NCBI GenBank assembly: GCA_900771805.1
Contig: CAAGPL010000067.1
Span: forward strand, 4,003-68,002
DNA: 64,000 bases
Direction: 5' to 3'
Source of the DNA: Bacilli bacterium
Lineage (GTDB): Bacteria; Bacillota_I; Bacilli_A; RF39; UBA660
Positions 18,540 through 37,101 of this stretch are shown here, piece after piece. Made by a program: the position numbers and the translations under genes. Position 1 is the stretch's first letter; each line of letters opens with the position of its first letter. The notes below the pieces were generated by a model. It ran no database searches. It was not told where the DNA came from and worked only from the letters and a program-made list of their open reading frames with translations.

Positions 18540-19661
18540 TCATTTAATTGCTATTAACTTTGCGTGAACCACCATTCTTTTAGTATTATCATAACAAGAA
18601 GATAATGTAAGTATTTTATCATTATTATTTGAATTAACACCATAATCATATATACTTCTTTTTTTTAAATCATTATAGAAATTTAATCTTGCCTCATCAT
18701 TTTCTATATTATCTGTTATGTAATAACTTTCAGGTTCTATATTATAAGTTGAAAACACCAAGAATAACATGGTTTTATTTTCTGTTGCTATTTTAATAAT
18801 ATAATTATCTTTATTTTTATACCACTTTTCTTTTGTTGTATTTCTAAGACTTCCAAACATAGCGTTATTAACAAGTCCATGAGCATATATTATTGTATTA
18901 TCTGATAAATCATCTATATCATTTCTATAATCTAAAAATACCCATCCTTTTTTATTATTAGACTTATCAAAAGAATGTTTTAAATAATAATCATTATCTT
19001 TATATTGTACAAATGGATAATTGATATTTGTACCATTTACTTTAATCCATCCTTTAGTATCGTTATTTTGATGTTTTAATTCATTAAAATTAACATCTAA
19101 CATTGATACATCAAGATATTTAAAATAATCATCAGATATTATATTAACTTCTTTTTTATTTGGAACTACCTCTTTAATCTTTAAGTTAGTTATAATATTA
19201 CCACTTATTTTATCTGTTTTAATTCCATCATTAATTAAAAAAGTAAAACTTAAAAATGAAAATATAAACACTGTAAGACAAACAGTTAAAACAAAAAAAT
19301 TAGTAGTTTTAAATAATTTTATCATTTTGAATATTGATTTAGTATCAGGTTTATTTAAAACTTTTACTTTTTCTAATGAAAGGAGCATTTTATTTAATTT
19401 TAAATCACTTATACCATGTTTTTTATAATTAAATAAAGTATCAATATCTTCTGGTGTTATATATGGATTTAAATTAAGTCTACTGTTTTTATTAACTATC
19501 TTAGCTTTTTTTACATAGTTTTTCGTATAATATATTAAATCTTTTTTCTTTAAACATTTTATTTCATCATAAGATATTTTAAATTTAGATATGATATATA
19601 AATTATAACAATCAATGTCAGATAAAAATGGATATTTTTCTTTTATATTTATATAATCCAT
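18540..19661 (-). CDS. srtB: Class B sortase with a long N-terminal cytoplasmic extension
   Basis: The C-terminal domain has TKGWIKVNGTNINYPFVQYKDNDYYLKH, NTIIYAHG (His), TLSSCY (Cys) and RMVVHAKL (Arg). A TM helix at about aa 118-140 is preceded by about 115 aa of unknown sequence. Confidence 0.8.
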   Translation of the reverse strand: MDYINIKEKYPFLSDIDCYNLYIISKFKISYDEIKCLKKKDLIYYTKNYVKKAKIVNKNSRLNLNPYITPEDIDTLFNYKKHGISDLKLNKMLLSLEKVKVLNKPDTKSIFKMIKLFKTTNFFVLTVCLTVFIFSFLSFTFLINDGIKTDKISGNIITNLKIKEVVPNKKEVNIISDDYFKYLDVSMLDVNFNELKHQNNDTKGWIKVNGTNINYPFVQYKDNDYYLKHSFDKSNNKKGWVFLDYRNDIDDLSDNTIIYAHGLVNNAMFGSLRNTTKEKWYKNKDNYIIKIATENKTMLFLVFSTYNIEPESYYITDNIENDEARLNFYNDLKKRSIYDYGVNSNNNDKILTLSSCYDNTKRMVVHAKLIAIK

Positions 19662-19679
19662 ATATAGTTCATCCTTTCT

Positions 19680-19706
19680 TAAAAAAAGTAGCTAACGCTA
19701 GCTACT
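19680..19706 (-). terminator. Intrinsic terminator between the surface-protein gene and srtB
   Basis: The hairpin AGTAGCTA-acgc-TAGCTACT (19687-19706) is followed by a T7 run on the minus strand. Confidence 0.5.
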
Positions 19707-19711
19707 TAAAA

Positions 19712-20845
19712 TTATCTTTGTTTAACTTTTTTAAATGTTATAGCTGCTATAGCGCCAGATATCATTAATATTATAGCTGTTATATTAGTATCATCAGAAG
19801 TACTTGGATTTTTAACTTCTTGTTTTTTATTATTAATATCTTTTTCATCATTATTTTTTATATCACTACCATTTGATTTATTATCATTTTCAGTTGGTGT
19901 TTGAACTTCTTTTTTTGCTAAAACGCCATAATAATATTTTTCTGTAGGACTTGATTGATGTGTTTTTGACTTCAACTTAATTTGATAACCATTCATAGAA
20001 GATCCTAATACTTTGTTATACATATTAATTGCTTCTTGAGCATTTTCATAAGTAACCATAGTAGTATTTCCTATTAAACCAAAGATGGTTCCTTCTTTTA
20101 CAATCTTACTTTCTAATTCTATTTTAACACCACTAATATTATCCGTTGTTAATCTCATAGCTTCATCTAATGTGTTATCACCCATAACACCAACATATAC
20201 GTCATAATCTAAATTAATTATACCAGATCCACTAACATTTTCTACCCACACATATCCAGTATAAATGCTTCCGTTGTTAATTAATTTTTTTGCACTGATA
20301 TATGATGCTGTTAAATTAACATCTTTTGGAATTACTATACTATCATTTTCTAAATCTACTCCAGCATTATTAAATAACTGAAAATTATCATATTGTTTTG
20401 CTCCATCAAGTAAAGCTTTTATTTCAGAACTTAAAAAATATCTTACTTTAGTTACCTCTTCCATATCAGCTGGATCACCATCACCACAATCTTCATCTCC
20501 TCTAGCGTGACCAAAACAACCATTTAATCCAGTTTCTTCTGTAGCACTAACAACATAACCATTAACAAAATAAAGTTTTGTTAATATCAATTTATCATTT
20601 TGATCATTAATATTTTCTACCTTTATATTTAAATCATTTTTTGAACTATCTTCAACTACTTTATAAGCCTTACAATTTTTATAAAAACCATTACAACTTT
20701 CTTGACTAACACTATCATAAATTACTTTATCTCCAACTTTATATTCTGGATATTCAACGACAGCTTTTGCTCTAACGTTTGATGCAAATGCAAAACTAGT
20801 TGCACAAATTAATCCCCCTAATAAAATTTTGTTAAATTTTCTCAT
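19712..20845 (-). CDS. Cell-wall-anchored surface protein with an NPSTS sorting signal (sortase B substrate)
   Basis: The signal peptide is MRKFNKILLGGLICATSFAFA. The C-terminus NPSTSDDTNITAIILMISGAIAAITFKKVKQR gives the NPxTx motif, a hydrophobic helix and a basic tail. The start moved to ATG 20845 behind AGGAGA. Confidence 0.7.
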   Translation of the reverse strand: MRKFNKILLGGLICATSFAFASNVRAKAVVEYPEYKVGDKVIYDSVSQESCNGFYKNCKAYKVVEDSSKNDLNIKVENINDQNDKLILTKLYFVNGYVVSATEETGLNGCFGHARGDEDCGDGDPADMEEVTKVRYFLSSEIKALLDGAKQYDNFQLFNNAGVDLENDSIVIPKDVNLTASYISAKKLINNGSIYTGYVWVENVSGSGIINLDYDVYVGVMGDNTLDEAMRLTTDNISGVKIELESKIVKEGTIFGLIGNTTMVTYENAQEAINMYNKVLGSSMNGYQIKLKSKTHQSSPTEKYYYGVLAKKEVQTPTENDNKSNGSDIKNNDEKDINNKKQEVKNPSTSDDTNITAIILMISGAIAAITFKKVKQR

Positions 20846-20914
20846 TCTTTTTTTTCTCCTTTTTTTCCACAATTTATAAACTAGCTGATACTTCTTTTGC
20901 TATCTTACATGTTT

Positions 20915-20942
20915 ATAATATCATTAACCCCCCCCCGGTCAA
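20915..20942 (-). promoter_or_regulatory. Sigma-A type promoter TTGACC-16-TATTAT whose spacer contains a G9 tract
   Basis: On the minus strand it reads TTGACC(20942-20937) GGGGGGGGGTTAATGA TATTAT(20920-15). The homopolymer occupies 20928-20936. Confidence 0.6.
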
Positions 20943-21119
20943 TATTTTGATATCCTGTGGAAAATAAATGTGTAAACTTTTGTCAATTGTAGTGGTAAAC
21001 TTAAAGTAGACACAAAAAGAGGGTATGTATTATAATATCAAACTTATAAAAAGAGTTTTACTATAACTTTTGCATTAATAAAATTCTATTAAAAAAGCAG
21101 GGAATTAATTTTCCTTGCT

Positions 21120-23654
21120 TTAATCAAAATTATCTAAAAAATCATCTATAGTCATAAATCTATCATCTATTTCCTTTAGTGATAATTCTTTTTTTTCTTT
21201 TGCATCTTCTTTAGTAACTGATTTTGTTACTTCTTTTTTATCTGTTACATCATCTTTTGTAAGATTAACTATTTCATATACGTTATCTATTTTTTTCTTT
21301 GTTATTGTAGATCCTGCAGAATATCTATCCATTATTGGTATTTCTGTTAATTTTATTTGTTTTGTATCATTATCACTTACTAACATAATCATCTTTTTAG
21401 CATCACTAACATATACCTTTATTACTTCTTGAGGGTTACTCTTTACTTCTCTTAATAATAGTAATCCTCTTTTAGCACGCGTAGTCTTTTCAAATTCTGA
21501 TAATTTAATACGTTTTGCAAGTCCTTTATGAGTAATTACTGTTACGTATTCAAAAGTACCATCAAAGATGCATGCTGAAGATACATAATCATCTTTTAAG
21601 TTAATTGCTTTAACGCCCGCTGTTTTAAGACCAATTACTGGAATTTCAGATCTATCATACCAAAGTCCATAACCTTTTTTAGTTGCAATAAATATTTCAT
21701 TATAAGGTTCCATTAAAACATCTACTACTTCATCATTATCTTTTAGCTTAATAAACATAATTGGTTTAGAATAACGTTGTACAACAAAGTCTTTTAAAAG
21801 AGACTTTTTAGTCATACCATTAGAAGTAAATGTAATTATTTCTCTATCATCAAATTTACTAATATCAAGAGCTTTTATTATTTTTTCATCTTCTTTTATA
21901 GGAACTAAATTACTTACGTGTTTTCCTAAATCCTTCCATTTTAACTCTGGAAGAGTATGAACTGGAATATATAAATAATTACCTTTATTAGTAAATAATA
22001 GTAAAGTATCTAACGTATTTTGTTCAAATAAGCCTATTACGTAGTCACCATCTTTTAATGCTGTTTCTTCATCATTTAAAGCAGAATAAGATTTTTTAGA
22101 TACACGTTTTACATATCCTTCACTTGTTACTACAACAATAACATCTTCCTTTGAAATCATATCTGTCATATCTATTTTTATTTCTGTTATCTCATCTTTA
22201 ATTTCTGTTTTGCGAGGATAAGCAAACTCTTTTTTTACTTTCTTTAGTTCATCTTTAACTACCTTTTTAAGTTCATCTTCATTAGATAGGATAAGTTCAT
22301 ATTCTTTTATAGCATCTTCTAACGCTCTCATTTCATTTTGAACATCAGTTATATCAGTATTTGTTAGTCTATATAATTGTAACATTACGATAGCAGTTGC
22401 TTGCTTTTCAGTAAATGAAAATTCTTTAACTAAATTAATAATTGCATCTGCTTTATTTTTAGATGCCCTAATTACTCTTATAACATCATCTAAAATACTA
22501 ATTGCTTTAATAAGTCCTTCTAAAATATGATATCTATCTTTAGCATGGTCTAAATCAAATTTAGTTCTTCTTCTTATAACTTCTTTTCTATGATCTATAA
22601 AGTAATCTAATATTTGGAGTACTCCAAGCATTCTTGGACGTCTTTTTGCAATTGCAATCATATTAAAGCTGTAAGATATTTGCATGTCCGTATTTTTAAG
22701 CAAGTAATTAACGATTAAATCAGTATTAGCGTCCTTTTTTAATTCTACTACAATTCTAAGTTCGCCCCTTGATGTTTCATCTCTTACATCTAATATGCCT
22801 TCTATTTTTTTATCAATTCTAATATCGTTCATTTTCTTAACTAAACTTGCCTTATTAACTTCATAAGGTATTTCTGTTATAACGATACTAGTCTTACCTT
22901 TTTCTTTTACTAATTCATACTTACATCTAACGATTATCTTACCCTTACCTGTTTCGTATGCTTCTTTAATTTGTTTTGCGCCTTCAATTACACCACCGGT
23001 TGGAAAATCAGGTCCTTTCATAACTTCTAAAATAGAATCTAATCTGCAGTTTGGAGAGTCTATTCTTTTTATGCAAGCATCTATTACTTCACCTAGGTTA
23101 TGAGGCGGAATATTAGTTGCGTAACCTGCTGAAATACCCGTTGATCCATTTACTAAAAGATTTGGAAAACCTGCCGGAAGTACAACTGGTTCCATTAAAG
23201 TATCATCATAGTTTGGAGCCATTTCTACAGTATCTTTATTTATGTCATTTAAAAGTACGTTACTTATTTTTGATAATCTAGCCTCTGTATAACGCATAGC
23301 AGCTGCTCCATCACCATCCATAGAGCCATTATTACCATGCATATCTATATAAGGAGTTGCCATCTTCCAATCTTGACTCATTCTTACCATTGCATCATAT
23401 ATAGAAGAATCTCCATGTGGATGGTAATTACCCATTATCTCTCCTACTGCCTTAGCACTTTTACGATATTTTTTATCATAGGTATTACCTGATTTATACA
23501 TGCCGTATAATATTCTTCTTTGAACTGGTTTTAACCCATCTCTTACATCAGGTAAGGCACGGTCTAATATAATTGTCTTACAATATCTACCAAAACGTTC
23601 CCCCATTATTTCTTCAAGGGAATATTCTTCAATTCTTTTTAATAATTCACTCAT
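21120..23654 (-). CDS. parC: DNA topoisomerase IV subunit A
   Basis: EEIMGERFGRYCKTIILDRALPDVRDGLKPVQRRILYGM matches the ParC-type N-terminus. The active-site region is AAAMRYTEARL. The start was set at MSELLKR behind AGGGGG. Confidence 0.9.
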   Translation of the reverse strand: MSELLKRIEEYSLEEIMGERFGRYCKTIILDRALPDVRDGLKPVQRRILYGMYKSGNTYDKKYRKSAKAVGEIMGNYHPHGDSSIYDAMVRMSQDWKMATPYIDMHGNNGSMDGDGAAAMRYTEARLSKISNVLLNDINKDTVEMAPNYDDTLMEPVVLPAGFPNLLVNGSTGISAGYATNIPPHNLGEVIDACIKRIDSPNCRLDSILEVMKGPDFPTGGVIEGAKQIKEAYETGKGKIIVRCKYELVKEKGKTSIVITEIPYEVNKASLVKKMNDIRIDKKIEGILDVRDETSRGELRIVVELKKDANTDLIVNYLLKNTDMQISYSFNMIAIAKRRPRMLGVLQILDYFIDHRKEVIRRRTKFDLDHAKDRYHILEGLIKAISILDDVIRVIRASKNKADAIINLVKEFSFTEKQATAIVMLQLYRLTNTDITDVQNEMRALEDAIKEYELILSNEDELKKVVKDELKKVKKEFAYPRKTEIKDEITEIKIDMTDMISKEDVIVVVTSEGYVKRVSKKSYSALNDEETALKDGDYVIGLFEQNTLDTLLLFTNKGNYLYIPVHTLPELKWKDLGKHVSNLVPIKEDEKIIKALDISKFDDREIITFTSNGMTKKSLLKDFVVQRYSKPIMFIKLKDNDEVVDVLMEPYNEIFIATKKGYGLWYDRSEIPVIGLKTAGVKAINLKDDYVSSACIFDGTFEYVTVITHKGLAKRIKLSEFEKTTRAKRGLLLLREVKSNPQEVIKVYVSDAKKMIMLVSDNDTKQIKLTEIPIMDRYSAGSTITKKKIDNVYEIVNLTKDDVTDKKEVTKSVTKEDAKEKKELSLKEIDDRFMTIDDFLDNFD

Positions 23655-27929: not shown

Positions 27930-30269
27930 TTACTCAAAGAATTCATCAAAAAAATCTTCATCATCTTTTTCTTTATTATTCATTATTTTATCTTTTTCTT
28001 CTTTATTAGTATATGTATTATCCTTAATTAAATCAGGTTTTTCTTCTTCTTTATTTGTACTTAATGATTCTTTATTTTCTGTTATATCTTCATCATCTAA
28101 AGATAAATCCTCTAAATAATCATCCATTATATCATGTACTTTATTTTCTTGTGTTTTATTAAATGGATTAAGTTCTATTTTATTATCTTCCATCATGTTC
28201 TTTATAGTTGGTTTTTCTGATGCAACAGCCTCATTTTCTTTAGCTTCGTTATTAGCTTTTTCCTCAGCTTCTAGCTCTGCTATTCTTGCATCTATCTTCT
28301 TAATCATATCATCAATATTTAAATTTTCATCACTATTTGTATTCATAAAAGGATTAACTTGTTTATTTTGCATTTCAAATGGATTTGCATTATTTGTTGA
28401 TCCAAATGGATTGCTTATTGGAGCACCAAAAGGAGATGATTGTCCAAATGGAGATGGTCCAAATGGAGATGATTGTCCAAAAGGAGAAGATTCAGATGAA
28501 AACAATTCATTTCTTTTTTCTTCTTTTTTCTTTTTTACAAATTCTCTTATATCAAATAACTTAATTGGCTTTTGCTCATGTGTTGGTAACGTAGCCTTTG
28601 GAACTCTTTCGTTATTTTTACCATGACCAAAATCAGTATTCCAAAATGGTAAAAATTTAGTTCTAAGTGGTGGAAGACGATGTTTTAAAACAAGTACTTC
28701 ATCCTGTTTAAATCTTTGAAGTTCAGTAACAGTAATAAGTGGTCTCGTTTCTTCTTTTTGATCTTTTCCTACTTTTACAATCTTGTCACCACATAATTTA
28801 CTAATTTCTTCAAGTGCTGATAATTCACCTGTTAAAAGATATACTATATTACCACAGTTACCACGAATTGTCTCAGCATCTTCATTACCATAAACTTGTT
28901 TTAACTGTGCAAAGTTTTGAATAATCATAGTCATTCTTATTTGTCTTGAACGAGCCGCTGTAATCATAGTTGTAATATCTTTAAATTTAGGCATATTAGC
29001 AAATTCATCAAGTAAGAAATTTGTTCTAATAGGAAGCTTACCTCCATGTCTTTGTGCTACTGCAATTAATGATTCATAACATTGTTTTATAAATATAGTT
29101 GCAAGTGCATGATATGTTGTTTTTTCATCCTGTATAATCATAAATACAGCTGTTTTTCTTTCACCTATTGTTTCCATATCAAAATCACTACGTGATAACA
29201 TTTCAGCTAAATTTTGAGTAACAGCAAATACTTTTATTTTTTGTTTTAAAACAGATTCAATAGAATTTTTAGTATCTTGTGGTGCATTAACAGTTCCTAA
29301 AGCATTTATAGCAGCAGGACTTGCAGGGTCTTTAAATTTGAAATATTCTTTAGCATATGTTGAAGCTCCAATTTTTTCTTCACCAACAGTCATCATTAAA
29401 TTAACGGTTGATATACTTATTTCATCTTCTTTAGCATCTTCAAACATACCAAGAGAAAGACCTGTTAAATAGTCAGCAGCCGAATTAGTCCAGAAAGGAT
29501 CATCAGCCTTTTCATCTGTTGCTATATTAATAGCCATATCATTTAAAAGTTCATTAGCCTTATCTTGATTACCTTCTTTATAATATTTGTAAGGAAGTGT
29601 ATAAGGGTTCCAACAACTACCATTTTTAGGATCACGAAAATTAACTACTATTACATCATATCCTAAGTCTTTTAACATTTCACCATTTTTTTCAAATATT
29701 TCACCCTTAGGATCAGTAATAACCATTGATTCACCTTTTTTTGCTAAAAGATTTACTAATGGATTAATTATCATCTGGGTTTTACCAGATCCGGTTGCAC
29801 CAATAACTAAAGAATGGGCTTCACCATTATCAACATATACTAAATTCTTTTTCTTATCATAAACCAAAGGAAATCCGGCTGAAACTGATTCTTTTGCCAT
29901 TATTTCAACAGGTTCAACATCATTAAATTTTTTATACTCATCTTCCTTAGCAAATCTACCAAAACCGTTTTCTTTTTTACCTTCTTTAAATCCAAAACCT
30001 TTTTCTCTAGTATAAAAGTGTGATGAAACACTTGCTGTTAAAATTATAATTGCTAATATCCAAAAAATAATAGTATATCCCAAATATGGCGGAAAAAATC
30101 CTTTCACAAAATTAAAGGTCCAACCAATATTTTCTTGCGTTGAATTAATTCCGCTTGAAGTTATATGATAAAAATTAACAACCAACATAGAAACAACTAT
30201 TAAAAGTAACAAACAAGCCCATAAAAATGCAACTACATCTTTTTTTTCTGCCCTAAATTTAAGTTTCAT
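27930..30269 (-). CDS. Type IV coupling protein (VirD4/TraG/TcpA family) with an FG/NPF-repeat and acidic C-terminal tail
   Basis: There are two N-terminal TM helices. Walker A is VIGATGSGKTQ and Walker B is NFLLDEFANM. The tail has SSPFGQSSPFGPSPFGQSSPFG...NPFG..NPF..NPF and ends DDEDFFDEFFE. The RBS is AGGAGG. Confidence 0.85.
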   Translation of the reverse strand: MKLKFRAEKKDVVAFLWACLLLLIVVSMLVVNFYHITSSGINSTQENIGWTFNFVKGFFPPYLGYTIIFWILAIIILTASVSSHFYTREKGFGFKEGKKENGFGRFAKEDEYKKFNDVEPVEIMAKESVSAGFPLVYDKKKNLVYVDNGEAHSLVIGATGSGKTQMIINPLVNLLAKKGESMVITDPKGEIFEKNGEMLKDLGYDVIVVNFRDPKNGSCWNPYTLPYKYYKEGNQDKANELLNDMAINIATDEKADDPFWTNSAADYLTGLSLGMFEDAKEDEISISTVNLMMTVGEEKIGASTYAKEYFKFKDPASPAAINALGTVNAPQDTKNSIESVLKQKIKVFAVTQNLAEMLSRSDFDMETIGERKTAVFMIIQDEKTTYHALATIFIKQCYESLIAVAQRHGGKLPIRTNFLLDEFANMPKFKDITTMITAARSRQIRMTMIIQNFAQLKQVYGNEDAETIRGNCGNIVYLLTGELSALEEISKLCGDKIVKVGKDQKEETRPLITVTELQRFKQDEVLVLKHRLPPLRTKFLPFWNTDFGHGKNNERVPKATLPTHEQKPIKLFDIREFVKKKKEEKRNELFSSESSPFGQSSPFGPSPFGQSSPFGAPISNPFGSTNNANPFEMQNKQVNPFMNTNSDENLNIDDMIKKIDARIAELEAEEKANNEAKENEAVASEKPTIKNMMEDNKIELNPFNKTQENKVHDIMDDYLEDLSLDDEDITENKESLSTNKEEEKPDLIKDNTYTNKEEKDKIMNNKEKDDEDFFDEFFE

Positions 30270-30319
30270 AAATTATCCTCCTAACTTTAGATAATAACAA
30301 CTATTCATATAAAAACATT

Positions 30320-30346
30320 ATACCAAATATTTAAAATATTTGGTAT
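30320..30346. repeat. Perfect 12-bp stem hairpin ATACCAAATATT-taa-AATATTTGGTAT between the lipoprotein and coupling-protein genes
   Basis: Read directly from the sequence. On the minus strand it is followed by aatgTTTTT. Confidence 0.5.
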
Positions 30347-30354
30347 AATTTTTC

Positions 30355-31074
30355 TTAATATTCTAATCTATTGTTTTTATATTTTTTATATAATATCATT
30401 CCAGATATTGATATTATAAGAATTATAATAAATATTGTAAATATCTTTGTTCCGATATTAGTTGCTTTTTTATTATGTATTTTTAATTCTTCTTTTTGTT
30501 TTTCTTCTTTCATTCTATTTTTGCTAATTTTGAAATATACTTTTTTTGATATATCTGTACTTTGATCAAAAATCCATGTATATGTACTTTTACTAACATT
30601 ATCAGCATTATTTTCTACTAAACCACCTGGCACTGTAATATTTAAATTTACTTTTGTCACATCAAATTTTTTTTCACTCAATGGCTTTGAAATAAGATTA
30701 TCATTAACACTTTCAACAGTATAATATTCTTCATCTTCTATACATTCAATATTTTTATATAAATATTGAGAAAACAAACTATATTTTATAGTTTCACATA
30801 TATTATTTTCTTCCTTATAAAAAGTAACATCTGTATCATTCTTATTTTCAGAAATTTGATAAGAATACTTTTTATATCTTATTGCATTATCATAATAATC
30901 TATGAATGATTTTGCATACTCTGTTGGAGTATTATAATTAACCGCTTTTTTATTTTCAAAATTTATAACTATTTCCTCTTTTATATTACCATTATAGTCA
31001 ATATTAATATTTGCATTTGCTGTACAACCTGTTAAAATTAGTAAAATAATAAAAATACTTATCTTTTTTTTCAT
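30355..31074 (-). CDS. T4SS-associated lipoprotein with a C-terminal TM anchor
   Basis: The lipobox is ILLILTGC and the C-terminal helix is IFTIFIIILIISISGMILY. The RBS is AGGGAG. Confidence 0.55.
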   Translation of the reverse strand: MKKKISIFIILLILTGCTANANINIDYNGNIKEEIVINFENKKAVNYNTPTEYAKSFIDYYDNAIRYKKYSYQISENKNDTDVTFYKEENNICETIKYSLFSQYLYKNIECIEDEEYYTVESVNDNLISKPLSEKKFDVTKVNLNITVPGGLVENNADNVSKSTYTWIFDQSTDISKKVYFKISKNRMKEEKQKEELKIHNKKATNIGTKIFTIFIIILIISISGMILYKKYKNNRLEY

Positions 31075-31084
31075 ATAAATCTCC

Positions 31085-34000
31085 CTAATTTTCTAAAAAA
31101 TATAAATAACCCTTATATGTATATTGTGAGCCACCATTAAAATACTTTTTAAATTCATCAAAACTATTAAATTCTTTATAAGTAAATCTTACACAACTTA
31201 AATCATTTTTTGAACAATTACCTCTAGCATATCCATCTGTATAAATTATTTTTTGTTTATCTTCACTTACATATTCAATTAATCCAACATGGCCATGTTT
31301 TGGAGATGAAGTTGAATCCAATCCAATAAATGTTCCTGATTTTATATCATCTATACTTAAACTACCAACAAATCCTTTAGAAGCAGTACCATTAGGATAA
31401 AAATCTTTTCCATCCCCATATTGATTTATTACTCTATTTTTATATGTTTTGCATTTATTTTCTGGTAAACTACCATTATCACATAATTCTTTTAATATTT
31501 CCATAGCTCTATTTCTAACATACCAAACGCATTGTCCTACATTTCTTTCATCTCTAACCCAAAGCATGTTATTTCCCTTCCAATCATCTTTTGGATTTGT
31601 TTTACGAATAGTAAAATTATATACTTCTTCTTTAAACTCATTTAATCTTAAAAATCCGGTAAATTTATCAGATGGTTCTATAACTACATTTCCAGTTATA
31701 GAATCTTCGTAAATCCATTTATTATCACCTGCATAAATTGCAAATACAGTTTTATCAGATGAATATCCAATATCACCTAATAATAAATTTTCCTGAGTTA
31801 TTTCATATGAATTATTTACTATATTTTGAAAATCATTTGTATTTTCAAAATTATTATTAATAGTTGACCAATATACCCAATTAATAAATCCTATATTTCC
31901 TAAACCTGTTTTTATCTCATTTCCTAAAGAATCATTTGTTATACCAAAATTATTTTCTTCATAGCCTGGGCTTTTTGCAAGTGAACTATCAACAAATGGA
32001 ATTTTATTTGCATAAGAGCTTGCAAAAGAAACAATCTTATTTCTTGTTGAAGTTAAGTTAGTAGTATTATTTGAGCATATTGTATTACTTACAGTTTTTA
32101 TAGTAGCATCATTTCCAGAAACAGTTGCAATACTATATAATGTATAAAATGAACTTAAAATTTCGCTATAATTTTTTCCAGTCATAGCTTCCATCGAATC
32201 TTGTCTCATACAACTTCCTATTTTACAAGATGAACCTGCATAATATGCTGTTTTAGCTACATTACCATTTGAATCTAACATATAAATATCTTTTGTTTCT
32301 TCCCAAGCCTGGTTATATAGTGCTTTTTGTGTTTCACTTGCCGCTGGTCTATTAGCACCATGAAATAATTTGTTGTTACCATTATTATTATATCCATAAT
32401 GATTTTGTATATTTGAATCATTACAACCTTTTTCAACATGACAAAAATCTTGATCCGCAGTTGACCATAACATAGAAATTACATATGCTCCTGTTGAGTC
32501 ATCTTTCATGGCTTTACGTCTAGATAAAGCAAAACTTTTTACAGCTACCATTTGAGCCTCTATAATTCCTAAATCAGTTACACCAGAGATTTCTTCATAA
32601 ACAACACCTTTAACATACTCTTCTAATGATAAATATGAATCATAATAACTCTCAGAGCATTGTGACATATTACTACATCCGGGTTTTTTCAAATCTATAA
32701 CAACACCAGTTGTTATCAAATCAGGAGTACTAACACTTCCGGCATCTACTAAAGTTGAAGAACAAGTTGCATTTTCAAAAACATAATCAATAAATAACTT
32801 TTTTTTTGATTTTAAATCCTCTATTATTGCAGTTTTTAAACCATCCTTATCACTAGAATTATCTATCATGCTTTTATATGCTTTATCATTACTAAAATAT
32901 TCATTTTTTAAATATTCATAATAAGCATTTTCATCGCCTTTGTTAAGTTCCTTCAATAATTTTTTTAATTTGTTTCTATAACTATATTTTCTAAATAATT
33001 CTAAATAAAAATCATTAGAACTTGTGTTATCTTCCTCTTCTTCTACAGAATCTTTATCATCTGTATCTTCTTCATCTATCAATTTATCATCAACTTCATC
33101 AGAATAATCTTTTGAAATTTTAAGTGATACATCACTACTCCATAAATTATTATAATAAGGATAGATAACTGTAATCATTGCAAGTGTTCCATCAGCAGTA
33201 GGATATTTTTCAAAAAGTTTTCTTATTTTTGATAACGTTTTTGCATCTGTTTTAGAATAATTAGACAAGTTATCATTTACATTACCCTTTTTACCAGGAA
33301 CAGCCGATGCAATTATAAAAGCTAATGTTGCTGCTATTATTAGCACTAACAAAACAGGCCAAATTGCTGCTATAATACCAGCAATAGTCTTAATGGCATT
33401 AGCTATCTTTTTTATAGTTTTAACAGTTTTTTCTCCTGCTTTTTTAGCATTTTGTACTGCTTTTTTTCCTTTTTCTACAGCATTCTTTCCTTTATTAATT
33501 GCCTGTCCTGCCCTACTATTATTAAATCTATTTTTGGCACCATTTTTAATACCATTTTTAATACCATTTTTAGCTCTATCCATCATTTCTTTTGGATTTT
33601 TTGGTCTATTATTCCATTTGTTTTTTAAATCATCTCTTTTTTTATCTAAAGCTGATTTAGGAGATTTTGAATTTTTATTATCATCTTTTTTTTGTGGCTT
33701 ATTATCATTTGGCTTTTCAGATTTATTTTGATTATCTTTATTTGGCGTATTTTCTGATTTATCCTTTTTATTATTATTTTCATCAGGTGTATTTTCATTT
33801 TTTTCTTTATTTTCATTTGAATTTTCTAGTGCATTATCTTTATTCGAATTATCTTCCTTATTATTAGTTTCATCTGTATTCTCACTATTAGAATCAGTAT
33901 TTTCATTATTTTGAGATTCCCCACTATTGTTACTAGATTCATTATCTTCATTTAAATTAGAACCAGCATTATCTTTATTGCCTTCAGAATCAGAATCACC

Positions 34001-34372
34001 TTCTTTTGATGTATCAGACGATTCATTTTCTTCTGGGGTATTATCTTGCTGTTCATTTGAGTCTTCTAAAGAATCCTCATTTTCATCGGCATCTAAATTT
34101 TCATTATCATCATCTATTTCTGAATCATTTTCAGTATCATCAGAAATATCATCCATATCATTATTAACATCAGAATCATTATCAGATACATCTTCTATAT
34201 CATCATTATTTTCTTTTACACCTAAACTGTCATCAACATTTTTATTTTCTCCACTATCAGGTGAAGCCTTTAATTCTCCTTTTATTTCCCCTTCTATTTC
34301 TACTATAACATCATCGAAATTAAAATCATTATTAGAATTATTTACAGTTTTATTTTTATCTTTATTATTCAT
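31085..34372 (-). CDS. Bifunctional peptidoglycan hydrolase (SpoIID-like lytic transglycosylase + CHAP peptidase) with a roughly 330-aa disordered N-terminal region; VirB1/CwlT/TcpG analogue
   Basis: The SpoIID-like segment is LSLEEYVKGVVYEEISG...IIEAQMVAVKSFALSRR...STADQDFC. CHAP is supported by VGQCVWYVRNRA and KHGHVGLIEYV. There is a single TM helix, IAGIIAAIWPVLLVLIIAATLAFIIASAV. The N-terminus is D/E/N/S-rich, then K-rich. The start was set at the MNNKDK ATG behind GGATGGTG. Confidence 0.75.
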   Translation of the reverse strand: MNNKDKNKTVNNSNNDFNFDDVIVEIEGEIKGELKASPDSGENKNVDDSLGVKENNDDIEDVSDNDSDVNNDMDDISDDTENDSEIDDDNENLDADENEDSLEDSNEQQDNTPEENESSDTSKEGDSDSEGNKDNAGSNLNEDNESSNNSGESQNNENTDSNSENTDETNNKEDNSNKDNALENSNENKEKNENTPDENNNKKDKSENTPNKDNQNKSEKPNDNKPQKKDDNKNSKSPKSALDKKRDDLKNKWNNRPKNPKEMMDRAKNGIKNGIKNGAKNRFNNSRAGQAINKGKNAVEKGKKAVQNAKKAGEKTVKTIKKIANAIKTIAGIIAAIWPVLLVLIIAATLAFIIASAVPGKKGNVNDNLSNYSKTDAKTLSKIRKLFEKYPTADGTLAMITVIYPYYNNLWSSDVSLKISKDYSDEVDDKLIDEEDTDDKDSVEEEEDNTSSNDFYLELFRKYSYRNKLKKLLKELNKGDENAYYEYLKNEYFSNDKAYKSMIDNSSDKDGLKTAIIEDLKSKKKLFIDYVFENATCSSTLVDAGSVSTPDLITTGVVIDLKKPGCSNMSQCSESYYDSYLSLEEYVKGVVYEEISGVTDLGIIEAQMVAVKSFALSRRKAMKDDSTGAYVISMLWSTADQDFCHVEKGCNDSNIQNHYGYNNNGNNKLFHGANRPAASETQKALYNQAWEETKDIYMLDSNGNVAKTAYYAGSSCKIGSCMRQDSMEAMTGKNYSEILSSFYTLYSIATVSGNDATIKTVSNTICSNNTTNLTSTRNKIVSFASSYANKIPFVDSSLAKSPGYEENNFGITNDSLGNEIKTGLGNIGFINWVYWSTINNNFENTNDFQNIVNNSYEITQENLLLGDIGYSSDKTVFAIYAGDNKWIYEDSITGNVVIEPSDKFTGFLRLNEFKEEVYNFTIRKTNPKDDWKGNNMLWVRDERNVGQCVWYVRNRAMEILKELCDNGSLPENKCKTYKNRVINQYGDGKDFYPNGTASKGFVGSLSIDDIKSGTFIGLDSTSSPKHGHVGLIEYVSEDKQKIIYTDGYARGNCSKNDLSCVRFTYKEFNSFDEFKKYFNGGSQYTYKGYLYFLEN

Positions 34373-34444
34373 AAATACACCATCCATACTAATATAGAAT
34401 AATTATAGCATAATAGCTTATAAAAAAAAAGATGCATAAGCATC

Positions 34445-36241
34445 TTATAAACCTCCACCAGAACCAAATGAATCTAATTCTGCTTCTGTTACATTAATAT
34501 CAATTCTCATTCTTCTACTACCACAAACAAGTAGTGCTTCACCTTGATTATATCTTTTAATACTTTCTTTTTCTTGTTCATTAAGGTCTATTAACATTGC
34601 TAAATCTTCAGCTCCCTGCTTTTTAAGACCCATTATCAAATAATAAGAAGCATTATCAAATATAGCCTTTCCTTGAGTTAAAACTGCTTGATCAGCAAAA
34701 TCAGATGGTTGTTGTGTAATAAGTAATGTACCACTATTATACTTTCTAGCACGTCTTTGTATTTGTGCTAAAAAGTCAGCTCCTATTGTATTATTACCAG
34801 ATAATAATATATGTGCTTCATCTACCATCATTACTGTATTAATAGATCTATCTAAACAGTGACTCCATGCATATTTTAATATATTAAAGAAAAGTGCATT
34901 TCTTATATTTTCATCTGCATTCATTAAGTCTCTTATATTAAACACTATAAACTTAGTTTGAGGATGAATAGTTGTATGACCATCAAAATAGAATTTTAAT
35001 TCTTTAACAAGAGGTCTTATTTTTAATTCTAATCTTTCTAATATATCTCTTTCATGAGTTAATTGATCTCCATAAGCTTCTAATCTTCTTACTAATGTTT
35101 CATATAAATCAGAAAATGTTGGATATTGTTCTGATGTTAAATTAGAAAAATCACTTTGAAATGATATTCCAAAACGTTGATATGTCATTTGAGCAATTTC
35201 ACTAAACATAGTTAAAACGTCTTCTGTAATTGTTGGATCATAATACTTCATAAACGCTTTTAAAAATTGTAATGTTTTAGTAAGAACTGTATATCCTAAT
35301 CCATTTTTCAAATCTTCTTCATCAGCTTCTAATATTACTTCAAGTGGATTAATCATACCAAATTCTCCACCTTTGCCTAAATCTATGAAATCTCCTTGCA
35401 TACGAGATGCCATTTCTTCAAGTTCTCCTTCTGGATCAATAACAACTGTTTTATACCCATTTCTTATATAAGTTCTTAATAATAATTTAGCTGCTGTTGA
35501 TTTACCACTACCTGTTGTACCTAGTATAATCATATTAGCATTATTACGATTAAATTCTTTTCTTATTTGATATAAAAATTGGTTAAATAATATAACTCCT
35601 CCAGAAAAATCAGTTCCCAAAAGACATGATGGTCCTGGATCTTTTAAACTATCAAAAATAAACGGATACATAGCTGCTATTGTAGGAGATGTAATTGGTG
35701 TTCCAATTTGCTCTTCTATATCTTGTTTAGGAAATATAGGTAAAATTGATTTAAGTACCTTTCTTTGTTCAAATCTTAAAGGTATTGCTCTTAAATCCAT
35801 TGCTGATAAATAATTTTTTATTTGTAATTTCTTTTGTTCTAATTGTTCTTTAGAATCAGCTGTTATAACAATATGCATTTGAAAATCAAAAATTTTAGAC
35901 TGATTAGTTGTAATCATTTGAATAAAATCATTTAAAGAATCATAATCCTGTCTTAATTGTTCTTGTGCAGTTTTATCATTTTCTTTTTCATAAGCTGCTT
36001 TTAATTCTGCTAACTGCTTATTAAGCATTTTCGACATAACAGAAAATGGTAATGGAATATGCTTAATAACTACTTTAACGCCTGAATTATTTGTTATATC
36101 AGATAAAAAACCAGGACTTATCCATTTAGGATATGAAATAACGGTTAAAATTGTACACCATTTATCACTTATTATAAACTCAGATGGTTTAAATTCTAAC
36201 CCTTTAGGTGCAAGTTCTTTTTTTATATTAATATTTGCCAT
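34445..36241 (-). CDS. VirB4-family T4SS ATPase, C-terminal (ATPase) part
   Basis: Walker A is LGTTGSGKST and Walker B is VMMVDEAH. Length is 598 aa. Its ATG overlaps the stop codon of the upstream ORF (ATAATG). Confidence 0.85.
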   Translation of the reverse strand: MANINIKKELAPKGLEFKPSEFIISDKWCTILTVISYPKWISPGFLSDITNNSGVKVVIKHIPLPFSVMSKMLNKQLAELKAAYEKENDKTAQEQLRQDYDSLNDFIQMITTNQSKIFDFQMHIVITADSKEQLEQKKLQIKNYLSAMDLRAIPLRFEQRKVLKSILPIFPKQDIEEQIGTPITSPTIAAMYPFIFDSLKDPGPSCLLGTDFSGGVILFNQFLYQIRKEFNRNNANMIILGTTGSGKSTAAKLLLRTYIRNGYKTVVIDPEGELEEMASRMQGDFIDLGKGGEFGMINPLEVILEADEEDLKNGLGYTVLTKTLQFLKAFMKYYDPTITEDVLTMFSEIAQMTYQRFGISFQSDFSNLTSEQYPTFSDLYETLVRRLEAYGDQLTHERDILERLELKIRPLVKELKFYFDGHTTIHPQTKFIVFNIRDLMNADENIRNALFFNILKYAWSHCLDRSINTVMMVDEAHILLSGNNTIGADFLAQIQRRARKYNSGTLLITQQPSDFADQAVLTQGKAIFDNASYYLIMGLKKQGAEDLAMLIDLNEQEKESIKRYNQGEALLVCGSRRMRIDINVTEAELDSFGSGGGL

Positions 36242-36786
36242 TATGCCAACACCGTCCCAAATTCAGTTTTTTCTCCGCCATTTAAGAAATTATCTAATAT
36301 ACTTCTTAAATCATCATTATTAGCTTGGCTAGATGCAAGCCCTGCATTAGCTAAACCATTTATCATAAGCCTTATTTTCTTTTGTATCATATCAACATTC
36401 TTATCTTTAAATAGGAAATAGAACTCAACATCAGAAACATTATCATTAAAATCCTCAGCCTTACTTAAATCTTGATTAATAAGCTTTCTTATAACTGGAT
36501 TTTGAGCACTGTTATACATCATTTGAAGTTCAGCTATATATACTGATATATCAACTGGTCTATCTGCTATAACAAGCCAAAATTCAAAATCAAGGGTGTT
36601 ATAAAAGTCCTTTAATCCATCTATAACACCAAATTGTTCATTTTCCTCCATAATAAATATGTTTTTAGGTGCAACCTTAACACCTGCAACCTTAAACCCA
36701 CTATCAAGTTCTATCATATTATTAATAATAGCCTTAACAGGAACAAAACTTTCAGTAGTAGAACTATTTGTACTCATCTTTAGCAC
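36241..36786 (-). CDS. VirB4 N-terminal-domain-like protein (separate ORF)
   Basis: FVPVKAIINNMIELDSGFKVAGVKVAPKNIF...EFWLVIADRPVDISVYI resembles the N-terminal domain of Gram-positive VirB4/TrsE/PrgJ proteins. Together, 181 + 598 aa roughly equals a normal full-length VirB4. The start is either GTG 36786 or ATG 36777. Confidence 0.55.
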   Translation of the reverse strand: MLKMSTNSSTTESFVPVKAIINNMIELDSGFKVAGVKVAPKNIFIMEENEQFGVIDGLKDFYNTLDFEFWLVIADRPVDISVYIAELQMMYNSAQNPVIRKLINQDLSKAEDFNDNVSDVEFYFLFKDKNVDMIQKKIRLMINGLANAGLASSQANNDDLRSILDNFLNGGEKTEFGTVLA

Positions 36787-37081
36787 ACCATCCTTTCCAA
36801 ATTAATTGATTTTTATCTTTAAAGTAAAAATTACGTACATTTCCTAAAATGCATAAAACATTATGATAATTAGGTATTGGTAAAACTAAAAATGCACAAG
36901 TAAGAAATGGTAATAAAACTAATACCCCTATATATATATTACTTGGTTGAAATATAGCAAACATTAAAAATGTAATAAATGTTCCTATCCCAAGTATTAT
37001 TAAATCAATAGGTCTAAAAATATTAAATATCAATTGCCCTCTTTTAGAATTAGCTGCTATTAAATATTGTCCATTATTCAT
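36764..37081 (-). CDS. PrgI/VirB3-like small two-TM T4SS protein
   Basis: The 105-aa protein has two adjacent TM helices and sits immediately upstream of VirB4, the usual position of VirB3 analogues. Confidence 0.55.
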   Translation of the reverse strand: MNNGQYLIAANSKRGQLIFNIFRPIDLIILGIGTFITFLMFAIFQPSNIYIGVLVLLPFLTCAFLVLPIPNYHNVLCILGNVRNFYFKDKNQLIWKGWCAKDEYK

Positions 37082-37101
37082 AAATTATTTTCCCCTTTTT
37101 A

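Follow-up and report, generated by a model that had tools for sequence, protein, structure and literature searches.

Does the run of nine guanines in front of a surface protein gene of an uncultured RF39-like gut bacterium serve to vary the expression of this gene? The run is located in a stretch of DNA of 64 kb (in the following called the window), which reads ATAATATCATTAACCCCCCCCCGGTCAA on the plus strand at positions 20915..20942. On the minus strand (20942..20915) the same nucleotides form TTGACC, followed by GGGGGGGGG with the nine guanines (G9), TTAATGA, and TATTAT, that is, a −35 and a −10 hexamer with a spacer of 16 nt. A sequence-only reading had described this arrangement about 70 nt upstream of the ATG at position 20845, and the sequence is exactly so: the −10 hexamer ends 70 nt ahead of this start codon, which is preceded by a Shine–Dalgarno sequence GGAG at 20859..20856. 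In addition, the dinucleotide TG one base 5′ of the −10 hexamer makes up an extended −10 element (TGaTATTAT in the window and TGnTATTAT across lineages). The coordinates of all features are collected in Table 1.

With a G+C content of 25.0%, the window is a poor place for such a tract; the second-longest run of G or C in the 64 kb measures 5 nt. The number of G/C runs of at least nine nucleotides expected in the window amounts to 0.003 if bases are independent and to 0.010 in a first-order Markov model, in agreement with the earlier statement that a run of nine is improbable at about 25% G+C. The G9 tract is real and composition alone does not explain it. A consensus promoter scan finds 10 of 12 matches for the TTGACC/TATTAT pair with the TG being present. 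Promoter-like hexamer pairs are not enriched in the AT-rich window (17 versus 15.5 ± 3.6 in shuffled sequences), and as these pairs occur at chance density, our assignment of the promoter builds on conservation and context and not on the consensus match alone. A census of the −35/−10 spacings of the promoter-like sites in the window gave a flat distribution without a preference for 17 nt; in the same census the few intergenic TTGAC-type sites adjoining gene starts have a spacing of 17 nt.

Table 1. Features of the G-tract locus and of other parts of the window (positions refer to the window).
Feature	Position	Strand	Remarks
−35 hexamer TTGACC	20937..20942	−	5/6 matches to TTGACA
G9 homopolymer (C9 on the plus strand), variable part of the spacer	20928..20936	−	only G/C run >5 in the window
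TTAATGA, fixed part of the spacer	20921..20927	−	holds the TG at 20923..20922
−10 hexamer TATTAT	20915..20920	−	invariant across lineages
Candidate second −10 TATAAA, overlapping TATTAT, 3 nt downstream	20917..20912	−	register deduced from L041
Block AAC..TAAGATAGCA at the predicted transcription start	20890..20912	−	invariant in five lineages with flanks ~78–90% identical
Predicted 5′ UTR, ~63 nt	20846..20908	−	holds TAAGATAGCA, GGAG, and the A8 run; start deduced from the −10
A8 run between GGAG and ATG	20848..20855	−	A7 or A6 in conspecific contigs
Regulated gene, 377-aa orphan surface protein	19712..20845	−	signal peptide and NPSTS sorting signal
Class-B-like sortase, 373 aa	18540..19661	−	N-terminal extension and membrane segment; PF04203, E = 7e-12, 45.6 bits
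Terminator-like hairpin with U run, directly 3′ of the parC stop	21090..21121	−	−9.7 kcal/mol, z = −2.3
Terminator-like hairpin with T run, gap between surface protein gene and sortase gene	19679..19707	−	−10.3 kcal/mol, z = −3.3
Extra bases (~100) between parC terminator and promoter	20990..21090	−	window species, compared with the sister species
ICE-like conjugation module	27930..40756	−	VirD4-like coupling protein (CD1115 family, 316 bits, above the cut-off)
OLE (Ornate Large Extremophilic) RNA, full-length	45060..45644	−	RF01071, 347 bits versus gathering score 50

The genes of the neighborhood are all encoded on the minus strand in the order parE, parC, an intergenic region of 275 nt with the G tract, the surface protein gene, and the sortase gene; parE and parC are of the Gram-positive type (TIGR01058 and TIGR01061, both above the cut-offs). 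The surface protein is composed of a signal peptide, a beta-rich core, a low-complexity stalk, the motif K-NPSTS-D, a hydrophobic segment, and a terminal KKVKQR. Its C-terminus reads KNPSTSDDTNITAIILMISGAIAAITFKKVKQR, and the homologs have NPSTS, NPSTG, or NPKTG at this place. No other ORF in the window carries a sorting signal, and judging from its signal peptide, the class B-type signal with hydrophobic segment and basic tail, and the adjacent sortase gene, the product should be surface-exposed. The protein matched no Pfam or NCBIfam family and no PDB sequence. Its AF2 model is of fair quality (pLDDT 74, pTM 0.70), and a Foldseek search with this model against the PDB gave no match at E ≤ 0.001. 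One of the homologs comes from a MAG named Candidatus Aphodocola, which is the GTDB genus CAG-594 of the family CAG-433 in the order RF39 (PMC8035907).

The adjoining sortase is presumed to be the enzyme that anchors the 377-aa protein, and the synteny of both genes is kept in all loci which reach far enough. The protein had previously been called a sortase-B substrate. The NPSTS signal agrees with this designation, whereas the sortase scores 149.2 bits with the srtB model TIGR03064 (model positions 10–235 of 235), just under the cut-off of 153.75, and is therefore termed class-B-like here. The sequence-only reading had also pointed to an RGD tripeptide in the protein; this remark did not survive the comparison with other alleles, as an allele of 93% identity reads GKVIGKEDCGDGD and the tripeptide is missing from all other homologs too, the whole segment being deleted in alleles of ~47% identity. 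We thus discarded the idea of an RGD-dependent, integrin-binding adhesin. In the AF2 model the RGD region (residues 111–119) has a pLDDT below 50.

Is the length of the tract constant? Contigs were found by means of the same or a related encoded protein; the GTDB representative genomes were scanned with protein alignment, and a gapped promoter pattern was used to scan a metagenome collection. The protein-alignment scan of the GTDB representative genomes yielded only three loci, and the window species is not among them. All counts are counts of contigs and not of independent strains, the collections may share overlapping samples, and the tract lengths are assembly consensuses compared between contigs. 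For the window species (surface protein 91–100% identical) there are eight contigs besides the window. All eight share the same promoter sequence on either side of the tract, which is G8 in two of them (L002, L003), G9 in three (L001, L004, L005), and G10 in three (L006, L007, L008). The comparison of strains and MAGs that had been proposed as a check thus reveals three tract lengths between identical flanks in the same species, and the tract is not invariant.

A similar picture emerges for a sister species whose parC flank is ~90% identical to that of the window. Its 31 contigs with TTGAC-Gn comprise 19 with G9, four with G8, three with G10, and five in which the tract is interrupted (GGGGAGGG twice, GGGGGAGGG twice, and GGGATGGGGG once; 8, 9, or 10 nt). 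The sister-species tracts then run into TAACTTGATATTAT; the first G serves as the last base of the −35 hexamer (TTGACG), and the spacer has a fixed half of 8 nt. The spacers are again 15, 16, and 17 nt long, 16 nt being the commonest, and the interrupted alleles resemble variants “locked” at 15, 16, and 17 nt. It had been predicted that gain or loss of one G would give a spacer of 17 or 15 nt, respectively, and spacers of 15, 16, and 17 nt are all found among the strains.

The arrangement extends to further lineages. L040, with flanks only ~78–80% identical, has TTGAC-G10-ATTATGATATTAT and a spacer of 16 nt, and L041 has TTGACA-G7-TACTTGATATTAT. In yet another lineage (L049:1-7, Logan SRR23219235) the contig begins inside the tract with GGGGGGG-TATATGG-TATTAT; this break fits an assembly graph that was interrupted by a heterogeneous or hard-to-read tract. 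With the exception of L049, whose contig starts within the tract, TTGAC is common to all tract-bearing lineages. Distant homologs in other genomic contexts (L014, L034–L039) have ordinary AT-rich promoters without a G run. In one of these, a Hadza gut Bacilli MAG (L014:1214-4149), two tandem surface protein paralogs of 470 and 456 aa are preceded by near-identical AT-rich promoters without a G tract, another route to diversity. In another distant lineage (L034:789-1373) the surface protein/sortase pair lies away from parC and directly 3′ of a WYL/HTH regulator, likewise without a G tract.

The differences in tract length separate very closely related contigs. L029 and L032 differ by no SNP in 3999 bp and yet have G10 and G9, respectively; one SNP in ~4 kb separates L019 (G9) from L021 (G10) and two SNPs in ~4 kb separate L017 (G9) from L018 (G8). 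Fitch parsimony on neighbor-joining (NJ) trees requires at least seven tract changes for 23 sister-species loci and at least four for nine window-species loci, with both gains and losses on the tract tree. In these comparisons the tract changes much faster than point substitutions accumulate, and we are highly confident that it is hypermutable. The gains and losses on the tree together with the contig break of L049 are suggestive of reversible switching. The evidence for fast change comes mainly from the sister species. In the window species the tract length follows the strain lineage (G10 in three of three P0003 contigs), a pattern that would equally fit a slowly evolving polymorphism.

Is the hexamer pair around the tract the promoter of the gene? 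When the intergenic regions of five lineages are aligned, four elements show no variation, namely the G core, the TG, TATTAT, and a block near the expected transcription start. The DNA upstream of the −35 hexamer cannot be aligned between species, and cross-species conservation starts at the −35. Even where the flanks of a lineage have no more than ~78–90% identity, TTGAC, the G run, and TGnTATTAT are still present, and the tract together with both hexamers is retained in four or five lineages; the tract is, by this conservation, apparently maintained by selection. In addition, terminator-like hairpins flank the surface protein gene on both sides, which means that the gene needs a promoter of its own, and the hairpin behind parC is kept in sister lineages. 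No other reasonable promoter was found in the interval from the parC terminator to the ATG. A TTGACA at ~20985 was considered as an alternative −35 but rejected, as it has no −10 at 16–18 nt and is absent from the sister species. Lineage conservation and the parC terminator thus leave TTGAC-Gn-TGnTATTAT as the only credible promoter of the gene. The earlier proposal of a slipped-strand promoter spacer is therefore strengthened by the length polymorphism among strains, the conservation of the promoter, and the parC terminator. Relative to the sister species, the distance from the parC terminator to the promoter is ~100 bases longer in the window species.

From the position of the −10 hexamer, transcription is predicted to start near 20908, within the invariant block that contains TAAGATAGCA. 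The conservation of this block exceeds what a bare promoter needs, and it could be an operator or a leader element. An Rfam search of the region 19600..21300 gave no match at E ≤ 1, so that the conserved 5′ UTR corresponds to no known riboswitch or leader, and the predicted 5′ UTR does not fold better than shuffled sequences (z = −0.8). The A8 run further downstream is A7 in L006–L008 and A6 in L003, all conspecific with the window; this shortens the distance from the Shine–Dalgarno sequence to the start codon from 10 to 9 and 8 nt and follows the strain lineage.

We consider it probable that the G tract is a slipped-strand contingency locus, that is, a promoter-spacer switch of the porA type which modulates transcription. 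Replication slippage would cause the poly-G/poly-C run to gain or lose one base, and the −35/−10 spacing would thereby shift among 15 nt (G8), 16 nt (G9, the commonest state and that of the window), and 17 nt (G10). Sigma-70/sigma-A promoters have a spacer optimum of 17 ± 1 nt, and because of this optimum and of the analogy to porA an effect of tract length on transcription is to be expected. The strength of the sigma-A-type promoter of the monocistronic surface protein gene would then change in a heritable and reversible manner. The commonest state, with its 16 nt, has a nominally sub-optimal spacer. As the promoter has an extended −10 and an overlapping TATAAA, we expect a graded output in the order 17 ≥ 16 > 15 and not a clean ON/OFF switch; the TATAAA candidate would be in a 17-nt register with G7, as in L041. 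A population would thus always hold cells with differing amounts of the exposed protein, which might be a form of bet-hedging against antibody (probably secretory IgA) or against a phage using the protein as its receptor.

Other explanations have to be weighed against a switch of this kind. The tract lengths were taken from consensus contigs, and the Logan contig L049 ends exactly in the tract, where assemblers struggle; the length differences might accordingly be sequencing or assembly artefacts at poly-G, with the true tract being constant. However, control A/T tracts of 6–8 nt on the same contigs (A6–A8 and T6–T7), many of them coding and hence constrained, are almost invariant (55 of 57, both exceptions being non-coding), a stability that speaks against homopolymer error across the platform. 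The same strain, present in three samples and independent assemblies without any SNP between them (L006, L007, L008), has G10 each time, which shows that the length calls are reproducible. Furthermore, the interrupted alleles are base substitutions which recur in independent samples and not length miscalls, and the three lengths are found in ENA assemblies, in Logan assemblies, and in the metagenome contig collection alike. We therefore regard an artefact as very improbable.

The tract could also be hypermutable without any consequence for expression, because the promoter lies elsewhere or because the extended −10 makes the −35 spacing irrelevant; it would then be a neutral hotspot or have some other structural role. 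The chance density of promoter-like matches in AT-rich DNA is in line with this, and the invariant TAAGATAGCA just downstream hints at additional control. Moreover, the TG is present, and extended −10 promoters are known to tolerate a poor −35 geometry. The promoter could thus be largely indifferent to the −35 spacing, and the effect on expression would perhaps be small. On the other hand, a neutral G9 should decay at 25% G+C, but the tract is kept in four or five lineages at a fixed distance from TTGAC, conservation between species begins precisely at the −35, the interval up to the parC terminator offers no other reasonable promoter, and even the interrupted alleles hold the total length at 8–10 nt. 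A tract without effect is in our opinion unlikely. Less likely still is that the G run is the whole or a part of a regulator binding site, or a structural element, so that its length alters binding and not sigma spacing. Tract and start-proximal block are indeed conserved beyond the needs of a bare promoter, and a WYL-domain regulator is encoded directly upstream at one distant homolog locus. Yet the parC-linked loci have no adjoining regulator gene, and the tract sits exactly in the spacer, whose total is held at 15–17 nt in three species despite fixed halves of 7 or 8 nt, as a constraint on sigma spacing predicts. A G-quadruplex was discarded, as there is only one G run, and to our knowledge a single run cannot form an intramolecular quadruplex. 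A regulator site is thus less parsimonious than a switch by sigma spacing.

The promoter-spacer switch would act on a protein which itself differs strongly between strains. In two sister-species contigs (L010 and L018) parC, the promoter, the C-terminal stalk, and the sortase are 98–100% identical, but the exposed domain of the surface protein has a nucleotide identity of only 47–63%. The boundaries of this cassette are the signal peptide and the C-terminal stalk. Likewise, protein alleles which are 47–75% identical to that of the window have a nearly identical signal peptide and sorting region. This pattern indicates what appears to be strong diversifying selection, with antibody or phage as the agent, and is compatible with a contingency locus. 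A further kind of variation was seen in the sister-species contig L050 (L050:2380-2450, Logan SRR14374044), in which a coding A7 run has become A8 (GCTAAAAAAAAGTGA). The frameshift cuts the protein to 313 aa and removes the NPSTS anchor; 23 other loci have A7. The A8 may be a second slippage site comparable to the 7A tract of porA or a sequencing error.

Homopolymers in promoter spacers are well known. The Neisseria genes opc and fetA have a poly-C and the vlp genes of Mycoplasma hyorhinis a poly-A run in the promoter spacer. These systems resemble the locus described here in that slippage of a spacer homopolymer controls, or in our case would control, the transcription of a surface protein. 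The host of vlp belongs to the Mollicutes, a group which once included RF39. In contrast to the single-copy locus with allelic cassettes studied here, vlp combines long poly-A runs in an AT-rich genome with a multigene lipoprotein family. The promoter tract of porA was reportedly first described by van der Ende et al. in 1995.

The closest parallel is porA of Neisseria meningitidis, in which the poly-G run between −35 and −10 gives high expression with 11G, 2-fold less with 10G, and 13-fold less with 9G (PMC3639595). Both loci have a poly-G spacer run (of ~9–11 nt in porA), a hypervariable surface protein, and single-base steps. In porA a coding poly-A tract leads to null variants, and here the change from A7 to A8 in L050 drops the anchor. 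Nevertheless, porA encodes an outer-membrane porin of a Gram-negative pathogen, whereas our protein is a sortase-anchored orphan of uncultured low-G+C gut Bacilli; the tract is shorter here (8–10), the promoter has an extended −10, and the locus is known from its sequence, whereas the expression of porA has been measured. With porA, opc, fetA, and vlp the locus has in common a repeat between −35 and −10, a length polymorphism far above background, and a product that is, by its predicted signals, surface-exposed.

Two other systems share part of these properties. The sortase-dependent pilus of Bifidobacterium breve also belongs to a gut commensal with a Gram-positive-type envelope and is subject to G-tract slippage, the length heterogeneity being used functionally (PMC9187656). 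However, the B. breve tract is intragenic and acts by an ON/OFF frameshift (PMC9187656), whereas the tract described here lies in a promoter spacer and would act on transcription, probably in a graded manner. In the fimbrial promoter of hifA/hifB of Haemophilus influenzae (cited in PMC5084427, reference 18), a simple repeat between −35 and −10 sets the spacer and the expression of a surface appendage, as we suggest here; unlike here, this repeat is a TA dinucleotide in a bidirectional promoter with 2-nt steps and clear ON/OFF states. When the literature was searched for RF39 in combination with phase variation or homopolymers, none of the papers listed mentioned RF39.

The mechanism is classic; new are the host lineage, the orphan substrate of a sortase-B-type system, and its association with an allelic cassette. 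RF39-like Bacilli occur widely in the guts of humans and animals, yet they are uncultured, and almost nothing is known about how they encounter their host. The locus offers a testable handle, namely a wall-anchored orphan protein with an exposed domain that is exchanged from strain to strain and an expression level that a mutational dial probably controls; dial and domain swap together would be characteristic of a dominant antigen or phage receptor. In addition, spacer homopolymer switching, which is best known from Gram-negative pathogens and mycoplasmas, would be extended to a commensal with a Gram-positive-type envelope, and such switches can be recognized and checked from public metagenome assemblies alone.

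Going further, one might tentatively combine the promoter poly-G as a rheostat, the A6–A8 run between Shine–Dalgarno sequence and ATG, the frameshift in the coding poly-A, and the replacement of the cassette, whose signal peptide and stalk ends stay conserved, into a multi-layer contingency system for the single sortase-B substrate of a bacterium with a reduced genome. We find this combination possible but rather doubtful. If it were true, host IgA or phage would in this lineage be directed mainly at the orphan protein, the TAAGATAGCA block would be a further control element, and phase and antigenic variation would be described for RF39 for the first time.

Some other features of the window deserve mention. 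Large ORFs at 34–40 kb were considered as mutS/mutL, which would be of relevance to the rate of slippage, but they turned out to be conjugation genes of an ICE-like module. This module has a VirB4-like ATPase of the mycoplasma ICE type (Mbov_0397 family) which is split into two ORFs; the split at 36241 is a TAATG stop–start overlap and no homopolymer frameshift. Next to the conjugation genes are two large ORFs (864 and 1100 aa) without annotation. Finally, the window contains a full-length OLE RNA, which scores far above its gathering threshold (Table 1).
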